A DNA stretch of 40,052 nucleotides from a virus (lineage: Duplodnaviria; Heunggongvirae; Uroviricota; Caudoviricetes), in the IMG/VR virus record IMGVR_UViG_646206259_000001; one strand, given 5' to 3'. Of the stretch, positions 3,290-22,597 are shown one piece after another. The stretch's first letter is position 1, and the number at the start of each line of letters is the position of its first letter. Under the pieces are notes generated by a model, which was not told the DNA's origin, searched no databases, and worked only from the letters and a program-made list of their open reading frames with translations. Position numbers and translations under genes: made by a program.

Positions 3290-6200
3290 TCAACTGATAC
3301 TGATACCGGCTGTAGATTTCTTCATCACAACAACAAGAAGGTCGCTGATACTGGTCGTTGGCGTCCAGTTATTAGCACCATATGAAGAAACATTGAAAGT
3401 CAGGGTGACATGGCCGTGTCCGGCAGGCATATCAATGACTGATGAAAATACCCTGCTGACATCCGTCGCGGGTTGCTGAAAGATTTCCTGTCCGTTCTTC
3501 AGTACCTGCAGCTTACAGGTTGAATACCAGTATGACTGTTGGTTGTTGCTGTTGAAGTTTTCATGCTTACCCCCACGAAACAGAACGGGGGGGACTACTA
3601 TCTGACGGTCAAAAGCCTGGTCATCGTACACAGTGACCGTTATTGTACCGCTGGCATAACTGCCATTTCTCGGAAAGGCTTTTCCCACCGTTTTGACAAT
3701 ATCACCTTCAATCTGGTTAGCTGACAGTTTTCCCAGAATCCGACAGTTCTGATTAATCGTGACGTTGTTGAGCGTCCCGGAGTTCGCGTTCACGTTACCG
3801 CTGATATCCGCATTTTTCGCAGAAAGTCGACCATCAGGTGTCAGTGAAAACGTTGGGGGATTGCCACCGCTGGTAATGGTGGGAGCCGTCAGATATTTCA
3901 GGAACACTTCGTTCATGAATATCTGATCGCCCTGCCCAACAAACATCGGCTTTGTGTTGCCATTCGCAGGATTAATCATCGCAATCCTGTCCGCCGCCAG
4001 CAGCACCTGACTCTGCATACCGTCAGGAGTATTCTCAACACCGGCACCAATACCCGCGATATAAAGGCGTCCGTCCTGCATCTGCTGCAGCTTCACAGCC
4101 CACATGCTGTTCAGGTTATTATTTGTATCAACCTGAACCTTCTGTATCTGCTGGATCGCTGCACTCTGGTCTTCCAGTTTCTTATTGACGGTCTGCGTGA
4201 TTTCATTGCTGACACCCGTAATGGACGTCCTGATTTCAGCCAGGTCAGGCGCAAGCTGACCGTTATCAATCTGCGTCCACAACTCCTGAGCCAGATGGGT
4301 TTTCCCTATCTCTCCTTTGAAAAAATCCAGATAGCCGGATGCATCATCACTCGGCTGGCCAACAGCCTCCACAAATGCCGATTTGCCAACGGTGTTCACA
4401 CTGCGGATGTAAAAATAATAATCATGGCCCGGTTTGATATTGATACTGGCGGCTATCCAGTACAGCGCCGTGCCAAGATAGCGTGCTGTGGTTTCAACCT
4501 GCCTGATATCCGCAATCCGCTTTTCCGAGAACCAGAACTCAAACTGTACCGTCGGATCATAAACCGCAAGATGCGGCGTGGCGGTTATCTGAAAATACCC
4601 CGGTGTCAGCTCAATCTGCGACGGCGCTGCCGGTGCGGCAATCCGGAACGATACCGATNNNNNNNNNNNNNNNNNNNNNNNNNNNNNNNNNNNNNNNNNN
4701 NNNNNNNNNNNNNNNNNNNNNNNNNNNNNNNNNNNNNNNNNNNNNNNNNNNNNNNNNNNNNNNNNNNNNNNNNNNNNNNNNNNNNNNNNNNNNNNNNNNN
4801 NNNNNNNNNNNNNNNNNNNNNNNNNNNNNNNNNNNNNNNNNNNNNNNNNNNNNNNNNNNNNNNNNNNNNNNNNNNNNNNNNNNNNNNNNNNNNNNNNNNN
4901 NNNNNNNNNNNNNNNNNNNNNNNNNNNNNNNNNNNNNNNNNNNNNNNNNNNNNNNNNNNNNNNNNNNNNNNNNNNNNNNNNNNNNNNNNNNNNNNNNNNN
5001 NNNNNNNNNNNNNNNNNNNNNNNNNNNNNNNNNNNNNNNNNNNNNNNNNNNNNNNNNNNNNNNNNNNNNNNNNNNNNNNNNNNNNNNNNNNNNNNNNNNN
5101 NNNNNNNNNNNNNNNNNNNNNNNNNNNNNNNNNNNNNNNNNNNNNNNNNNNNNNNNNNNNNNNNNNNNNNNNNNNNNNNNNNNNNNNNNNNNNNNNNNNN
5201 NNNNNNNNNNNNNNNNNNNNNNNNNNNNNNNNNNNNNNNNNNNNNNNNNNNNNNNNNNNNNNNNNNNNNNNNNNNNNNNNNNNNNNNNNNNNNNNNNNNN
5301 NNNNNNNNNNNNNNNNNNNNNNNNNNNNNNNNNNNNNNNNNNNNNNNNNNNNNNNNNNNNNNNNNNNNNNNNNNNNNNNNNNNNNNNNNNNNNNNNNNNN
5401 NNNNNNNNNNNNNNNNNNNNNNNNNNNNNNNNNNNNNNNNNNNNNNNNNNNNNNNNNNNNNNNNNNNNNNNNNNNNNNNNNNNNNNNNNNNNNNNNNNNN
5501 NNNNNNNNNNNNNNNNNNNNNNNNNNNNNNNNNNNNNNNNNNNNNNNNNNNNNNNNNNNNNNNNNNNNNNNNNNNNNNNNNNNNNNNNNNNNNNNNNNNN
5601 NNNNNNNNNNNNNNNNNNNNNNNNNNNNNNNNNNNNNNNNNNNNNNNNNNNNNNNNNNNNNNNNNNNNNNNNNNNNNNNNNNNNNNNNNNNNNNNNNNNN
5701 NNNNNNNNNNNNNNNNNNNNNNNNNNNNNNNNNNNNNNNNNNNNNNNNNNNNNNNNNNNNNNNNNNNNNNNNNNNNNNNNNNNNNNNNNNNNNNNNNNNN
5801 NNNNNNNNNNNNNNNNNNNNNNNNNNNNNNNNNNNNNNNNNNNNNNNNNNNNNNNNNNNNNNNNNNNNNNNNNNNNNNNNNNNNACTGGTCTGTGGTGCT
5901 GTCCGGCGTCATCCTGCGCATCCGGATATTAAACGGGCGCGGCGGCAGGTTATCCACCACCACCGAGGCCAGATACTGCGAGGTGGTTTTGCCTTTAATG
6001 GTGATGTCTTTTTCCGTCACCCAGCCACCGTTACGCTGTATCTGAACCAGCAGGCGGACTTCCGACGGATTCCGGTCCCCCTTTGAGGTGGTTTCCACCA
6101 GTGCCTGCACACCGAAGGTAAAGCGCAGACGGTCGATGTTTGCAGACGTGATGGTCCGGGTAATCGGCGTGTCGTACTTCACTTCCGTACCCAGCACCGT

Positions 6201-18369: not shown

Positions 18370-18462
18370 AACCTCACTCCCAGCGGACGACGGCGACACC
18401 GGGTTGTCCCCAGTACCGACTCCGCATCATTGATCGCCCGGTTAAGCTCATCCAGAGAAGCC
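18366..18462 (-). CDS. W: Head-tail joining protein W, C-terminal part
   Basis: ...DELNRAINDAESVLGTTRCRRRPLGVRL resembles lambda gpW C-terminus; stop overlaps the B start (ATGA). Confidence 0.6.
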
Positions 18463-19902
18463 NNNNNNNNNNNNNNNNNNNNNNNNNNNNNNNNNNNNNN
18501 NNNNNNNNNNNNNNNNNNNNNNNNNNNNNNNNNNNNNNNNNNNNNNNNNNNNNNNNNNNNNNNNNNNNNNNNNNNNNNNNNNNNNNNNNNNNNNNNNNNN
18601 NNNNNNNNNNNNNNNNNNNNNNNNNNNNNNNNNNNNNNNNNNNNNNNNNNNNNNNNNNNNNNNNNNNNNNNNNNNNNNNNNNNNNNNNNNNNNNNNNNNN
18701 NNNNNNNNNNNNNNNNNNNNNNNNNNNNNNNNNNNNNNNNNNNNNNNNNNNNNNNNNNNNNNNNNNNNNNNNNNNNNNNNNNNNNNNNNNNNNNNNNNNN
18801 NNNNNNNNNNNNNNNNNNNNNNNNNNNNNNNNNNNNNNNNNNNNNNNNNNNNNNNNNNNNNNNNNNNNNNNNNNNNNNNNNNNNNNNNNNNNNNNNNNNN
18901 NNNNNNNNNNNNNNNNNNNNNNNNNNNNNNNNNNNNNNNNNNNNNNNNNNNNNNNNNNNNNNNNNNNNNNNNNNNNNNNNNNNNNNNNNNNNNNNNNNNN
19001 NNNNNNNNNNNNNNNNNNNNNNNNNNNNNNNNNNNNNNNNNNNNNNNNNNNNNNNNNNNNNNNNNNNNNNNNNNNNNNNNNNNNNNNNNNNNNNNNNNNN
19101 NNNNNNNNNNNNNNNNNNNNNNNNNNNNNNNNNNNNNNNNNNNNNNNNNNNNNNNNNNNNNNNNNNNNNNNNNNNNNNNNNNNNNNNNNNNNNNNNNNNN
19201 NNNNNNNNNNNNNNNNNNNNNNNNNNNNNNNNNNNNNNNNNNNNNNNNNNNNNNNNNNNNNNNNNNNNNNNNNNNNNNNNNNNNNNNNNNNNNNNNNNNN
19301 NNNNNNNNNNNNNNNNNNNNNNNNNNNNNNNNNNNNNNNNNNNNNNNNNNNNNNNNNNNNNNNNNNNNNNNNNNNNNNNNNNNNNNNNNNNNNNNNNNNN
19401 NNNNNNNNNNNNNNNNNNNNNNNNNNNNNNNNNNNNNNNNNNNNNNNNNNNNNNNNNNNNNNNNNNNNNNNNNNNNNNNNNNNNNNNNNNNNNNNNNNNN
19501 NNNNNNNNNNNNNNNNNNNNNNNNNNNNNNNNNNNNNNNNNNNNNNNNNNNNNNNNNNNNNNNNNNNNNNNNNNNNNNNNNNNNNNNNNNNNNNNNNNNN
19601 NNNNNNNNNNNNNNNNNNNNNNNNNNNNNNNNNNNNNNNNNNNNNNNNNNNNNNNNNNNNNNNNNNNNNNNNNNNNNNNNNNNNNNNNNNNNNNNNNNNN
19701 NNNNNNNNNNNNNNNNNNNNNNNNNNNNNNNNNNNNNNNNNNNNNNNNNNNNNNNNNNNNNNNNNNNNNNNNNNNNNNNNNNNNNNNNNNNNNNNNNNNN
19801 NNNNNNNNNNNNNNNNNNNNNNNNNNNNNNNNNNNNNNNNNNNNNNNNNNNNNNNNNNNNNNNNNNNNNNNNNNNNNNNNNNNNNNNNNNNNNNNNNNNN
19901 NN
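18463..19902. other. N-run where Nu1, terminase large subunit A and W N-terminus are expected
   Basis: 1440 consecutive n; shorter than the ~2.5 kb expected. Confidence 1.
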
Positions 19903-19938
19903 GAAAATTTCGGCAAGCCTCTTTTTATTAACCTTCAT
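19903..19938 (-). CDS. nu1: Terminase small subunit Nu1, first 12 codons only (rest in N-run)
   Basis: MKVNKKRLAEIF... resembles lambda Nu1 MEVNKKQLADIF; lies at the expected distance from cos. Confidence 0.7.
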
Positions 19939-19939
19939 G

Positions 19940-20130
19940 AAAACAACCCATTATCAAATACAAGGCCCGACATGAAAACGCCAGAAAAAGGCATTTTCGG
20001 ACACTTTCATGTCGGACCTTTACGGATGCAATATTAAAAAAACAAAAAGTTATATTCGAGAAGTACCGACACGATTTTCCCTGAAAAATTTTCATAAATA
20101 GTGAAAAACCGCGAGGTCGCCGCCCCGTAA
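19940..20130 (-). other. cos site: cosN at 20114-20125 (12-nt cohesive end GGGCGGCGACCT on the minus strand) plus cosB region toward Nu1
   Basis: Plus strand ...AACCGCGAGGTCGCCGCCCC... is the reverse complement of the lambda left end GGGCGGCGACCTCGCGGTTTT; flanking CACTATTTATGAAAATTTT also lambda-like. Confidence 0.85.
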
Positions 20131-20273
20131 CCTGTTGGATCGACGGAAAGGACCCGAAAACGAGAATAATTATCACTTACAGCAAGAATCGAATCTGATC
20201 TATTATGGTGCTTGCTATTATGTGCCGGCACAAGTGCGTCGTTTACCGTCATTTCACACAGAGGCATCATCAA

Positions 20274-20525
20274 ATGAAAATCAGAAATATTCTCGCTATC
20301 TCCCTTGCGACATCATCCTTCAGTTGCCTGGCATTTAAATCCTCGCCCAATGTGCTACCAGGACCAACGAATCAACTAACTGCGGTAGAAAGTAAAATTA
20401 TCGGACATTTTTATGCCCCACACAGTACATTACCCGGAACAACCATCACAGGGACATGTGACGCCTCCCCCGTCCCGGGATGCACCTGTCCGTTTTGTAC
20501 TATGCTGCGTAGCCAAAACCGATAA
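20274..20525 (+). CDS. Hypothetical small secreted Cys-containing protein (83 aa) with N-terminal signal peptide
   Basis: ATG at 20274 after AGAGG-type RBS; MKIRNILAISLATSSFSCLA is signal-peptide-like; mature part has 5 Cys. Confidence 0.45.
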   Translation: MKIRNILAISLATSSFSCLAFKSSPNVLPGPTNQLTAVESKIIGHFYAPHSTLPGTTITGTCDASPVPGCTCPFCTMLRSQNR

Positions 20526-20586
20526 CATCCGCATTTACCTGGTATTCCATGATGAGTTCACGCAGCGACTGATAGAGGAAGGAAAG

Positions 20587-20766
20587 ATGGTTAGTAAAAG
20601 CAAGGCGCATTGCCGCCGCATGCTGCAGGCATTGCAACAGACGAGAGCAGGTATTTTTGACCAGTTGGAAAACTGCCAGCATACTTTGCCCGAGTATATC
20701 GCCATCTCATCGGAAACCAGTGCAACTCTTATTCATCGGGTTCCACCAGAGAAAAAGAAGAAATGA
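20587..20766 (+). CDS. Hypothetical protein (59 aa)
   Basis: ATG preceded by GAGGAAGGA RBS; followed by a hairpin terminator. Confidence 0.35.
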   Translation: MVSKSKAHCRRMLQALQQTRAGIFDQLENCQHTLPEYIAISSETSATLIHRVPPEKKKK

Positions 20767-20773
20767 ACAGTGA

Positions 20774-20803
20774 GGCGTTGTGTGGCATACAACGCCTTCT
20801 TCC
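20774..20803 (+). terminator. Rho-independent terminator candidate
   Basis: Stem GGCGTTGT / ACAACGCC with 7-nt loop followed by TTCTTCC. Confidence 0.4.
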
Positions 20804-20888
20804 ATCATTCCTCGTCAGCCATGACAAAAATATAACCGCTGGCTCTTTCATTTTTCTCCTGCTTCCAGCCCCTCTCTACCTGGAAGCA

Positions 20889-21215
20889 TCAAGGACGTGA
20901 CGGCGTAAAGATAAATTGTCTCTTCACTCCCTGACAGGGGCGATTCTTTTCAAATCGCCATTTCGCCATGGCCTTCACCACTTCATCACGAAACAAATTA
21001 TGAGGCTCTGAGCGGAGAAAAACGATCCGTGTCACAGTCCCATCAGCACCAATATCGAACTTAACCTCAACCAGCCCCTTGATATAATTTGCTGCAGCAT
21101 ATTCCGGATATCGTGGATACACCGTCACTAATTGCCGGGGCTCATCAGCTTTTTGCTGCGAGCATCCCACTGCCAGGACAGATAACAGAAAAAGTAGTAA
21201 AAGGCGTCTTTTCAT
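20889..21215 (-). CDS. Lipoprotein with TonB C-terminal-like domain (108 aa)
   Basis: MKRRLLLLFLLSVLAVGCSQQ has a lipobox (LAVGC); remainder ...YPRYPEYAAANYIKGLVEVKFDIGADGTVTRIVFLRSEPHNLFRDEVVKAMAKWRF fits the TonB_C pattern; AGGA RBS. Confidence 0.6.
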   Translation of the reverse strand: MKRRLLLLFLLSVLAVGCSQQKADEPRQLVTVYPRYPEYAAANYIKGLVEVKFDIGADGTVTRIVFLRSEPHNLFRDEVVKAMAKWRFEKNRPCQGVKRQFIFTPSRP

Positions 21216-21695
21216 TTTTATTCCTACGGGTCTTATTCTGACAATATATCCTGTGTTCCAGACTGCCACATCACCACATCCTGTGCCATTATCTGACTCA
21301 CATTACATACATCGCATCGGGATACAGTAGTAGCACTTTCTGTAATACAGCTTCCTGTTTCTTCCACCATCGCACCGGGATAAACCCGCGAATCATTAAC
21401 GCGGTAAAAACCCGGTGTGCATCGTTTTTAATTATTCCCGCACACTCACGCAGAAGGAATTCCCCGTCGGGCTACGGTCATGGTTAATGCGGGAATACGG
21501 CGACGATACAGCGCAGCTAAAAGGGTAATGGACGGATAGACCGGTTTATTTCATTCCACAGGATTCTGAGTGTCCCCAACTTCCTCCAATAGTCTGAGCC
21601 CACCTGTGTAGTTTTAATTTTCATCAATCCATTTAACTATCGTTTAATTGTTGTCACATAGGATTCTGCCGTTTTTAACAATGCAGGATAATAAG

Positions 21696-21989
21696 ATGAA
21701 AAAAATGTTGTTTTCTGCCGCTCTGGCAATGCTTATTACAGGATGTGCTCAACAGACGTTTACTGTTGGAAACAAACCTACAGCAGTAACACCAAAGGAA
21801 ACCATCACCCATCATTTCTTCGTTTCGGGAATTGGGCAGAAGAAAACTGTCGATGCAGCAAAAATTTGTGGTGGTGCAGAAAATGTTGTTAAAACAGAAA
21901 CCCAGCAAACATTCGTAAATGGATTGCTCGGTTTTATTACTTTAGGCATTTATACTCCGCTGGAAGCGCGTGTGTATTGCTCACAATAA
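21696..21989 (+). CDS. bor: Bor lipoprotein (serum resistance / lysogenic conversion)
   Basis: MKKMLFSAALAMLITGCAQQTFTV...GIYTPLEARVYCSQ, 97 aa, matches lambda Bor; opposite strand to the lysis genes as in lambda. Confidence 0.9.
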   Translation: MKKMLFSAALAMLITGCAQQTFTVGNKPTAVTPKETITHHFFVSGIGQKKTVDAAKICGGAENVVKTETQQTFVNGLLGFITLGIYTPLEARVYCSQ

Positions 21990-22020: not shown

Positions 22021-22597
22021 CTATCTGCACTGCTCATTAATATACTTCTGGGTTCCTTCCAGTTGTTTTTGCATAGTGATCAGCCTCTNNNNNNNNNNNN
22101 NNNNNNNNNNNNNNNNNNNNNNNNNNNNNNNNNNNNNNNNNNNNNNNNNNNNNNNNNNNNNNNNNNNNNNNNNNNNNNNNNNNNNNNNNNNNNNNNNNNN
22201 NNNNNNNNNNNNNNNNNNNNNNNNNNNNNNNNNNNNNNNNNNNNNNNNNNNNNNNNNNNNNNNNNNNNNNNNNNNNNNNNNNNNNNNNNNNNNNNNNNNN
22301 NNNNNNNNNNNNNNNNNNNNNNNNNNNNNNNNNNNNNNNNNNNNNNNNNNNNNNNNNNNNNNNNNNNNNNNNNNNNNNNNNNNNNNNNNNNNNNNNNNNN
22401 NNNNNNNNNNNNNNNNNNNNNNNNNNNNNNNNNNNTATGTCAGTAATTACCGCGTTCGCCAGCGTCAGTTCTCTGGCATTTTTGTCGCGCTGGGCTTTGT
22501 AGGTAATGGCGTTATCACGGTAATGATTAACAGCCCATGACAGGCAGACGATGATGCAGATAACCAGAGCGGAGATAATCGCGGTTACTCTGTTCAT
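22021..22597 (-). CDS. Rz: Spanin Rz (i-spanin), interrupted by N-run 22089-22435; Rz1 presumably inside the N-run
   Basis: N-terminus [38 protein letters not shown]... and C-terminus ...[21 protein letters not shown] match lambda Rz, but the two parts are in different frames. Confidence 0.8.
22089..22435. other. N-run inside Rz
   Basis: 347 consecutive n. Confidence 1.

Follow-up and report, generated by a model that had tools for sequence, protein, structure and literature searches.

The window analysed here, i.e. the whole 40,052-nucleotide stretch of the IMG/VR virus record IMGVR_UViG_646206259_000001, is, judged by its sequence, a lambdoid prophage of Escherichia coli of the phage-21 type; between positions 19903 and 21300 it shows 99.9-100% identity to phage 21 and its relatives, and its cos stretch agrees with phage 21 cos records at 99.6-100%. 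Directly outside its cos site lies an open reading frame (ORF) of 83 codons, hereafter called ORF83, which is read from the plus strand, opposite to Nu1 and the structural genes on the minus strand, and which encodes the predicted precursor of a small secreted protein with four cysteines. We find that ORF83 is one real, hitherto uncharacterised moron gene, not half of a two-gene unit, and that it belongs to a family which is unnamed, widespread, mobile and commonly mis-annotated. A preliminary description of the window had already placed the frame directly outside cos, against the direction of the late genes and in the interval that holds bor, and the coordinates and strands agree with this (Table 1). 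The package as a whole, namely a real exported four-cysteine moron from a family linked to the zinc regulator Zur, accompanied by a 59-codon frame (ORF59) that is not a gene, is put forward with moderate confidence.

Several comparisons bear on the reality of ORF83, which is preceded by the Shine-Dalgarno sequence AGAGG, located 9 nt upstream. Among 5.8 billion proteins searched, 22 relatives were found, mostly of 82-84 amino acids (aa) and with 55-98% identity, from E. coli, Salmonella, Klebsiella and Citrobacter, and a profile run against 1.84 billion cluster representatives yielded 30 clusters, nearly all of 79-88 aa (best E = 1e-45). When one genome per bacterial species in GTDB was scanned, 52 chromosomal loci of the family were found, in genera which include Salmonella, Enterobacter, Pantoea, Erwinia, Klebsiella, Raoultella, Kosakonia, Phytobacter, Serratia, Dickeya and Pectobacterium; across the Enterobacterales, homologues of the same length range from 25 to 77% identity. 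The frame is intact in 67 of the 68 family loci that were fetched (median 83 codons) as well as in all 77 near-identical prophage copies (30 haplotypes), and pairwise ratios of non-synonymous to synonymous substitution rates (dN/dS) lie at 0.09-0.39 where synonymous sites are unsaturated. Taken together, these comparisons argue that ORF83 is a genuine gene under purifying selection, and we are highly confident of both the gene and its assignment to the family. A 106-aa form with an extended start (ATG 20205), which is used in some GenBank records, was rejected since none of the relatives conserves the extension.

Public annotations of this interval read otherwise. The 83-aa frame is called in none of the phage 21, RefSeq (PGAP), PhiR57_1 and PHROGs annotations, and it is missing from the two prophage GenBank records examined; RefSeq lacks it in the two E. 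coli records examined and among the 40 matches listed, and gives an antisense ORF instead, while the PhiR57_1 record has plus-strand ORFs of 67 and 117 aa called in the interval. Where members of the family carry a name at all, it is "hypothetical" or "uncharacterized", apart from one automatic UniRef entry, "Lipoprotein".

That the 83-aa product begins with a clear signal peptide had been stated before and is confirmed by the family. In all members a basic n-region precedes a hydrophobic core that ends in A-x-A before an invariant phenylalanine, i.e. a signal-peptidase-I site. In the window protein the -3 position of this site is Cys18, which is alanine in most members. The preliminary description had counted five cysteines in the mature part; five is correct for the precursor, but the mature protein has only four, because Cys18 lies within the signal peptide. 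A lipoprotein reading was rejected, since the sequence reads S-F-S-C in place of the lipobox [LVI][ASTVI][GAS]C and the cysteine concerned is alanine in most members. The mature protein of 63 aa has a computed mass of 6.65 kDa and a pI of 8.5. It consists of a variable N-terminal third (residues 22-38 being variable), a conserved helix (ESxIxxxFY) and the C-terminal stretch GTCxAxPVxGCxCPFCTMLR. In an alignment of 30 members reaching down to 25% identity, A20, F21, C62, C70, C72 and C75 are invariant, and G60, P66, G69, L78 and R79, all present in the window protein, are conserved in at least 90%. The window protein thereby shows every sequence trait of the family, i.e. a length of 76-88 aa with a conserved MK(I/V) start, A-x-A followed by Phe, and the four cysteines.

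Neither of the two proteins had been recognised in the preliminary description, and for ORF83 this still applies: used as a single sequence or as the 30-member alignment, it matched nothing in Pfam, PHROGs or NCBIfam, and a profile search of PDB sequences was likewise without a match. It also is no ordinary conserved phage ORF of the ybcV/ybcW type, a case that the description had held against its own proposal, since it has no match in these family collections and its relatives are mostly chromosomal genes of Enterobacterales. Two kinds of deviating sequences were observed in the searches. E. coli variants of 82 aa (P0003 and P0006; L075/L076 2793-3041) carry two compensating frameshifts that replace residues ~47-66 including Cys62, and retain the signal peptide and the C-terminal GCTCPFCTMLR. 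Furthermore, two long asparagine-rich, eukaryote-like proteins (P0045 and P0047) contain 4-5 repeats of P[IL]PGCNCPKCTxLR, nearly identical to the ORF83 motif P-V-P-G-C-x-C-P-x-C-T-x-L-R; these repeat proteins have no Pfam domain and gave no functional lead.

Table 1 Features of the cos-proximal slot and its surroundings, with positions in the window. Assignments to genes, peptides and control elements are predictions.
Feature	Position	Strand	Remark
ORF83, 83-aa precursor of a small secreted four-cysteine protein	20274-20525	+	supported by homologues, dN/dS and intact copies
Signal peptide of ORF83, residues 1-20, cleavage between C-L-A and F	20274-20333	+	Ala20 and Phe21 invariant in 30 diverse members
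C-x7-C-x-C-x2-C motif (Cys62, Cys70, Cys72, Cys75) within GTCDASPVPGCTCPFC	20457-20498	+	all four cysteines invariant
ORF59, 59 aa	20587-20766	+	purine-rich Shine-Dalgarno sequence GAGGAAGGAAAG
Antisense ORF, 60 aa	20500-20682	-	annotated by RefSeq (PGAP) as WP_000881610.1 and in the phage 21 record as CPT_21_75; judged spurious
Probable 3' untranslated stretch of the ORF83 transcript	20526-20772	+	contains ORF59; no hairpin directly after the ORF83 stop
GC-rich hairpin, 12-bp stem	20773-20797	+	between the convergent ORF83 and TonB_C lipoprotein gene
Candidate extended -10 element TGCTATTAT for ORF83	20213-20221	+	putative, read by eye from the sequence
Perfect 12-bp palindrome TGTGCCGGCACA	20221-20232		follows the candidate extended -10; located where chromosomal relatives have the Zur box
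Fur-box-like 7-1-7 palindrome CGAGAATAATTATCA	20161-20175		13/15 to TGATAATNATTATCA; directly after cosQ, ~100 nt upstream of ORF83
cosQ, AGGACCC (reverse complement of GGGTCCT)	20149-20155		cosQ annotated at the equivalent position in OL657228
cosN, AGGTCGCCGCCC	20114-20125		reverse complement of GGGCGGCGACCT; landmark defining the slot
Nu1 terminase gene, start	19938	-	landmark of the layout
Lipoprotein with TonB C-terminal domain	20889-21215	-	
bor/iss	21693-21989	+	
Rz	from 22037	-	

The preliminary description had joined ORF83, ORF59 and a hairpin into a two-ORF unit bounded by a terminator. Read as a moron operon, this unit would have ORF59 encode a functional small cytoplasmic protein. 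In favor of such an operon, ORF59 is flanked by ORF83 and the hairpin, is undisrupted in 74 of the 77 prophage loci, corresponds to a PHROGs family (phrog_4843) and has a good purine-rich Shine-Dalgarno sequence (GAGGAAGG at 20575-20582), so that the strong ribosome-binding site claimed for it is indeed present. The frame itself, however, does not behave like a gene. Its homologues amount to four hits, all within the same E. coli module and none below ~90% identity except for one garbled contig, and polymorphism among the 77 copies (3 synonymous and 7 non-synonymous sites, plus a separate 1-bp deletion) looks neutral. In addition, a 1-bp insertion at 20602 shifts the frame after codon 5, in a lineage which is indexed in 483 blocks of a public assembly collection. 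ORF59 was never found beside ORF83 homologues in Salmonella, Klebsiella, Citrobacter or other E. coli prophages, neither ORF59 nor the 117-aa frame has a match in Pfam, and ORF59 has none in NCBIfam. The comparisons give no support to ORF59 as a gene, which it probably is not, and we regard the two-gene operon as improbable. The idea that ORF59 might be a decayed DUF3950 gene was rejected as well, because 20526-20888 lacks DNA or protein similarity to the DUF3950 region, and tblastn of DUF3950 proteins against 20501-20900 returned only noise. Membership of ORF83, ORF59 or the 117-aa frame in DUF3950 (PF13132) or DUF1398 was likewise discarded for lack of a Pfam match.

An even more radical reading would take the 60-aa minus-strand ORF for the real gene and ORF83 for a chance frame. 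The antisense ORF lies on the strand of the late operon, is annotated in both RefSeq and the phage 21 record and has its own PHROGs family, phrog_3744, so that PHROGs holds two overlapping, mutually antisense families here (phrog_4843 for the plus-strand and phrog_3744 for the minus-strand ORF). Against this stand a nonsense change (20547 C>A) in 22 of the 77 loci and polymorphic sites of which 0 are synonymous, 7 are non-synonymous and 1 is a stop. Homologues are restricted to E. coli hits, most of them near-identical and many truncated, and the ORF was not found next to ORF83 homologues outside this module, whereas ORF83 is conserved down to 25% identity under purifying selection. By these comparisons the antisense ORF is not a gene, and the reading built on it is effectively refuted.

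The simplest reading of 20526-20772 is that it would form the 3' tail of the ORF83 message; an Rfam search of 19903-21700 gave only noise below the thresholds. The terminator that had been proposed at 20774-20803 corresponds to a stable hairpin (dG -16.4 kcal/mol, z -2.95; 2 of 200 shuffled sequences fold as well), which is followed by CUUCCAUCAUU and not by a U-run, and no U-run is found on either strand. Because its U-tract is poor, the hairpin was not called in the terminator scan. While the structure itself thus stands, its role as a terminator is only possible: it may act as a weak, perhaps bidirectional terminator for ORF83 or for the convergent TonB_C lipoprotein gene.

Having settled on ORF83, we turn to its chromosomal relatives. 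The family, secreted proteins of ~80-85 aa from Enterobacterales with the motif C-x7-C-x-C-x2-C, is unnamed and is defined here (alignment A3). Upstream regions were scanned for the Zur operator core TGTTATANTATAACA, allowing up to 3 mismatches within 150 bp. The core precedes 43 of the 56 distinct family genes (77%) and 43 of the 51 species-level loci, at positions -37 to -120, in contrast to a background of 0.8% in random windows from the same loci and 1.1% in shuffled upstream regions. Since the same motif, often perfect, also precedes the genes for AztC, the ABC ATPase, the AztD-like protein and the COG0523 protein in family loci, its identity as a Zur box is confirmed. This is strong comparative evidence, drawn from upstream sequences, for the family belonging to the Zur regulon in many species.

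Clustering of the neighbours of all family loci revealed no universal neighbour of the family gene, and metal-uptake genes recur. In 12 of the 51 species loci the gene adjoins those for AztC and AztB (both above the NCBIfam cut-offs) and for an AztD-like protein, and other recurrent neighbours are COG0523 GTPases and FecB-type binding-protein transporters. A family-5 binding-protein ABC system (TIGR04028) is found next to the gene in Serratia and Pectobacterium. In Pectobacterium, moreover, one Zur box is common to the family gene and a divergent, DksA2-like paralogue of DksA, whose zinc-finger region retains only one cysteine. In Salmonella, 95 bp separate the gene from pliG upstream of it; pliG carries a perfect Zur box, and for E. 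coli its control by Zur has been demonstrated by experiment (PMC4219657). Literature searches on Zur-regulated small proteins and on AztD neighbours turned up nothing on the gene described here.

The prophage copy differs from these relatives. No Zur-like site (up to 3 mismatches) was found in the 34 kb of unmasked window. All E. coli hits are prophage or plasmid copies; the module is carried by 1232 of 5426 complete E. coli genomes (~23%), in nearly all of them at an identity of at least 99%, and IMG/VR holds 73 near-identical prophage copies. Related copies with ~60-70% identity and a common SSFSCLAF signal-peptide signature occur on Klebsiella plasmids, in a Salmonella islet, in another E. 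coli lambdoid lineage (L014) and in Citrobacter, where the relative is a chromosomal gene. On 66 Klebsiella plasmids, most of them predicted to be conjugative, the homologue has a Fur-family repressor and a COG0523 (ZigA-like) GTPase as neighbours. The homologue on Klebsiella IncFIB plasmids (e.g. pINF237_01-VP; L005-L007, L154) is 63% identical and mostly unannotated. The Salmonella islet (salamae, diarizonae and others; L008-L010, L018-L021) comprises, in this order, a SPATE autotransporter, pliG, the ORF83 homologue, a bor-like lipoprotein, an omptin and an NEL-type effector, and looks like a virulence-gene cluster with a central zinc-responsive pair.

The content of the slot itself differs among related phages. 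Lambda has a DUF3950-type ORF alone in the cos-proximal position; in the L014 lineage the corresponding place beside cos is taken by an ORF83 homologue with a DUF3950 gene behind it; and the phage 21 type, whose linear record OL657228 ends at window position 20126, has ORF83 and the orphan stretch behind it. Because the contents of this known variable slot vary among lambdoid lineages, ORF83 is lysogenic-conversion cargo, i.e. a moron, as had been suspected from its bor/cos-proximal position. Its strand and the different cargo of lambda and L014 agree with this, as does a GC content of 47%, compared with 53% for the structural genes, and its orientation makes it independent of pR'. Most likely, as far as these sequences tell, ORF83 was captured from the chromosomal Zur-controlled family and has since come under a different control.

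Two palindromes are candidates for this other control. The perfect 12-bp palindrome just behind the candidate extended -10 element may be the operator of some other regulator. The palindrome after cosQ is the best match to the Fur consensus in the whole window, and the Fur-box-like 7-1-7 palindrome TGATAATnATTATCA flanks cosQ in three lambdoid lineages with differing downstream cargo; it is perfect and at the same position in L014 (~3862-3876) and lambda (NC_001416, ~48452-48466). It may represent a putative Fur operator for the slot or, because it is present whatever gene follows, an unrecognised part of cos. A literature search for a Fur box in connection with cosQ, and for ylcI in connection with Fur, found no paper on this palindrome.

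From the above we propose the following role. The Sec system would export the ORF83 precursor, signal peptidase I would cut after Ala20, and a mildly basic protein of ~63 aa with an amphipathic helix and the C-terminal four-cysteine motif would be released into the periplasm. As a family, we infer, these proteins would be made and would act there under zinc scarcity, helping the envelope to cope. The four-cysteine site might bind zinc and hand it to a high-affinity importer, or otherwise assist the importer; capture and hand-off of zinc through this site we consider plausible, though short of probable. In the prophage copy without a Zur operator, control could be constitutive or could run via the Fur-like palindrome by cosQ, and the prophage would provide E. 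coli, which has no chromosomal copy, with a family member that it otherwise lacks. In its full form the proposal is more speculative still, and we advance it as a tentative one: ORF83 would be the mobile representative of an unrecognised Zur-regulon family, a periplasmic four-cysteine protein of 6-7 kDa with zinc or some other thiophilic metal as its ligand, which it would supply to high-affinity importers such as AztABCD or ZnuABC. Phages, Klebsiella virulence-type plasmids and the Salmonella islet would have taken it up repeatedly, uncoupling it from Zur and thus pre-arming their hosts against host-imposed zinc starvation.

A number of points speak against this proposal. The chief argument is the oxidising periplasm, which disfavors a thiolate metal site: DsbA normally oxidises periplasmic cysteines, and the four cysteines may form two structural disulfides instead of a metal site. 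The zinc link is drawn from relatives and, as the window copy has no Zur box, may not hold for this copy. Most azt neighbours are convergent to the family gene and not co-transcribed with it, and the "NikA-like" ABC neighbours (TIGR04028) are not proven to be metal transporters. AlphaFold2 models from 13 and 30 sequences show two helices at low confidence (pLDDT 46.6 and 58.2) and yield no fold to compare. A strict sigma-70 scan gave no good -35/-10 pair and thus no convincing promoter for ORF83, and the polymorphism of ORF83 within the 77 copies (4 synonymous and 5 non-synonymous sites) is too small to demonstrate constraint by itself.

The argument from the oxidising periplasm leads to the most serious competitor of the zinc-binding role, namely a disulfide-stabilised mini-protein that binds no metal and acts as a periplasmic inhibitor or shield against a factor of the host or of competitors, zinc starvation serving as the signal of the host environment as is the case with PliG. 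Four invariant cysteines in an exported protein fit disulfides made by DsbA, the Salmonella gene lies directly downstream of the Zur-controlled pliG, and the mobile copies travel with bor/iss, omptin, SPATE and Klebsiella plasmids, i.e. with cargo for serum resistance and virulence. However, the commonest neighbours of the family are metal importers and not defence genes, no similarity to any known inhibitor family was detected and no target can be named, for which reasons we consider an inhibitor unlikely, though to be taken seriously. A further reading, in which the product is a pre-pro-peptide whose middle is removed after export so that the C-terminal Cys-rich peptide of ~24 residues is freed as a toxin, bacteriocin or signal, would account for the variable middle (residues 22-38), for the strongest conservation being found in the C-terminal GTC...PGCxCPFCTMLR and for the double-frameshift variants P0003 and P0006, which retain only the ends, and it agrees with the architecture of STa and STb, whose precursors of 72-83 aa carry a signal peptide. 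The conserved helix in the supposed pro-region and the invariant Phe21 nonetheless favor a single folded mature protein; there is neither a conserved processing site nor similarity to enterotoxin or bacteriocin families, and no export system or immunity gene is located nearby, which makes a released peptide a poor candidate.

Returning to the proposed zinc-related periplasmic protein, we compared ORF83 with known systems. Lambda bor, E. coli iss and the lysis-cos morons resemble it in that small exported envelope proteins are encoded in the same slot against the late operon, with a GC content below that of the structural genes and with presence or absence among otherwise similar phages. Bor, however, is an outer-membrane lipoprotein without sequence relationship to ORF83, which has no lipobox, is a predicted soluble substrate of signal peptidase I and has chromosomal relatives with Zur operators. 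ZinT and PliG share with the ORF83 family the small size, the Sec-dependent export to the periplasm and a Zur operator of the GTTATnnTATAAC type, but ORF83 shows no sequence or detectable fold similarity to them, is half their size, has the four-cysteine motif, and in the window lacks the Zur box; the zinc ligands of ZinT are histidines, and PliG, a lysozyme inhibitor, is a beta-sandwich. AztD is a periplasmic metallochaperone that passes zinc to the solute-binding protein AztC. As an accessory to a high-affinity zinc importer in the periplasm it is a counterpart of the proposed role, and the family gene adjoins aztD-aztC-aztB in the 12 loci mentioned above; the genes are usually convergent, and AztD is a beta-propeller of ~400 aa while mature ORF83 is a mini-protein of 63 aa. 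The heat-stable enterotoxins STa and STb are likewise short precursors with a Sec signal and a Cys-rich, disulfide-capable C-terminal part encoded on mobile elements, and STb has four cysteines forming two disulfides. ORF83 differs from both in its cysteine spacing and its conserved middle helix, and it has no sequence similarity to them and no Pfam or NCBIfam match at E <= 1. Finally, ybcV/ybcW of DLP12 and YlcI (DUF3950) of lambda and DLP12 are found in this cos-proximal interval of other lambdoid prophages, with no Pfam match linking ORF83 or ORF59 to them. Literature searches on the tonB-like gene of CP-933N and on phage 21 morons brought up nothing on ORF83.

Two consequences follow from the gene and its family. 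A conserved gene present in ~23% of complete E. coli genomes has been overlooked in the records inspected, and in RefSeq a decaying antisense ORF has been annotated in its place. The E. coli Zur regulon has been described as comprising four operators only, and a family of small secreted four-cysteine proteins whose genes have Zur boxes in no fewer than 43 enterobacterial species and often adjoin aztABCD is a new candidate in bacterial zinc homeostasis. The repeated capture by prophage, plasmids and a virulence islet, close to iss/bor and to a lipoprotein with a TonB C-terminal domain, suggests that the protein acts at the interface with the host when nutritional immunity is in force. Should the product be only a minor structural disulfide mini-protein, a corrected annotation and one more ordinary moron would still be gained.

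Some observations concern the surroundings of ORF83. In the window, 6081 bases are masked by runs of N, which cover the terminase and a portion of the lysis region (18460-19902, 22090-22430 and further stretches), and entries of the ORF list that span such runs are artefacts. On the minus strand of lambda NC_001416, at ~48303-48109, we noticed a 64-aa DUF3950/YlcI-like ORF (MSTKNRTRRTTTRNIRFPNQMIEQ...) that is absent from the annotated features of that record. The lipoprotein encoded convergently to ORF83 measures 108 aa and contains hardly anything beyond a TonB C-terminal domain (Pfam TonB_C, E = 7e-13). Its PHROGs family bears the label "Rz-like spanin". The protein might rival TonB for access to TonB-dependent receptors and in this way contribute, for example, to the exclusion of phages or colicins.

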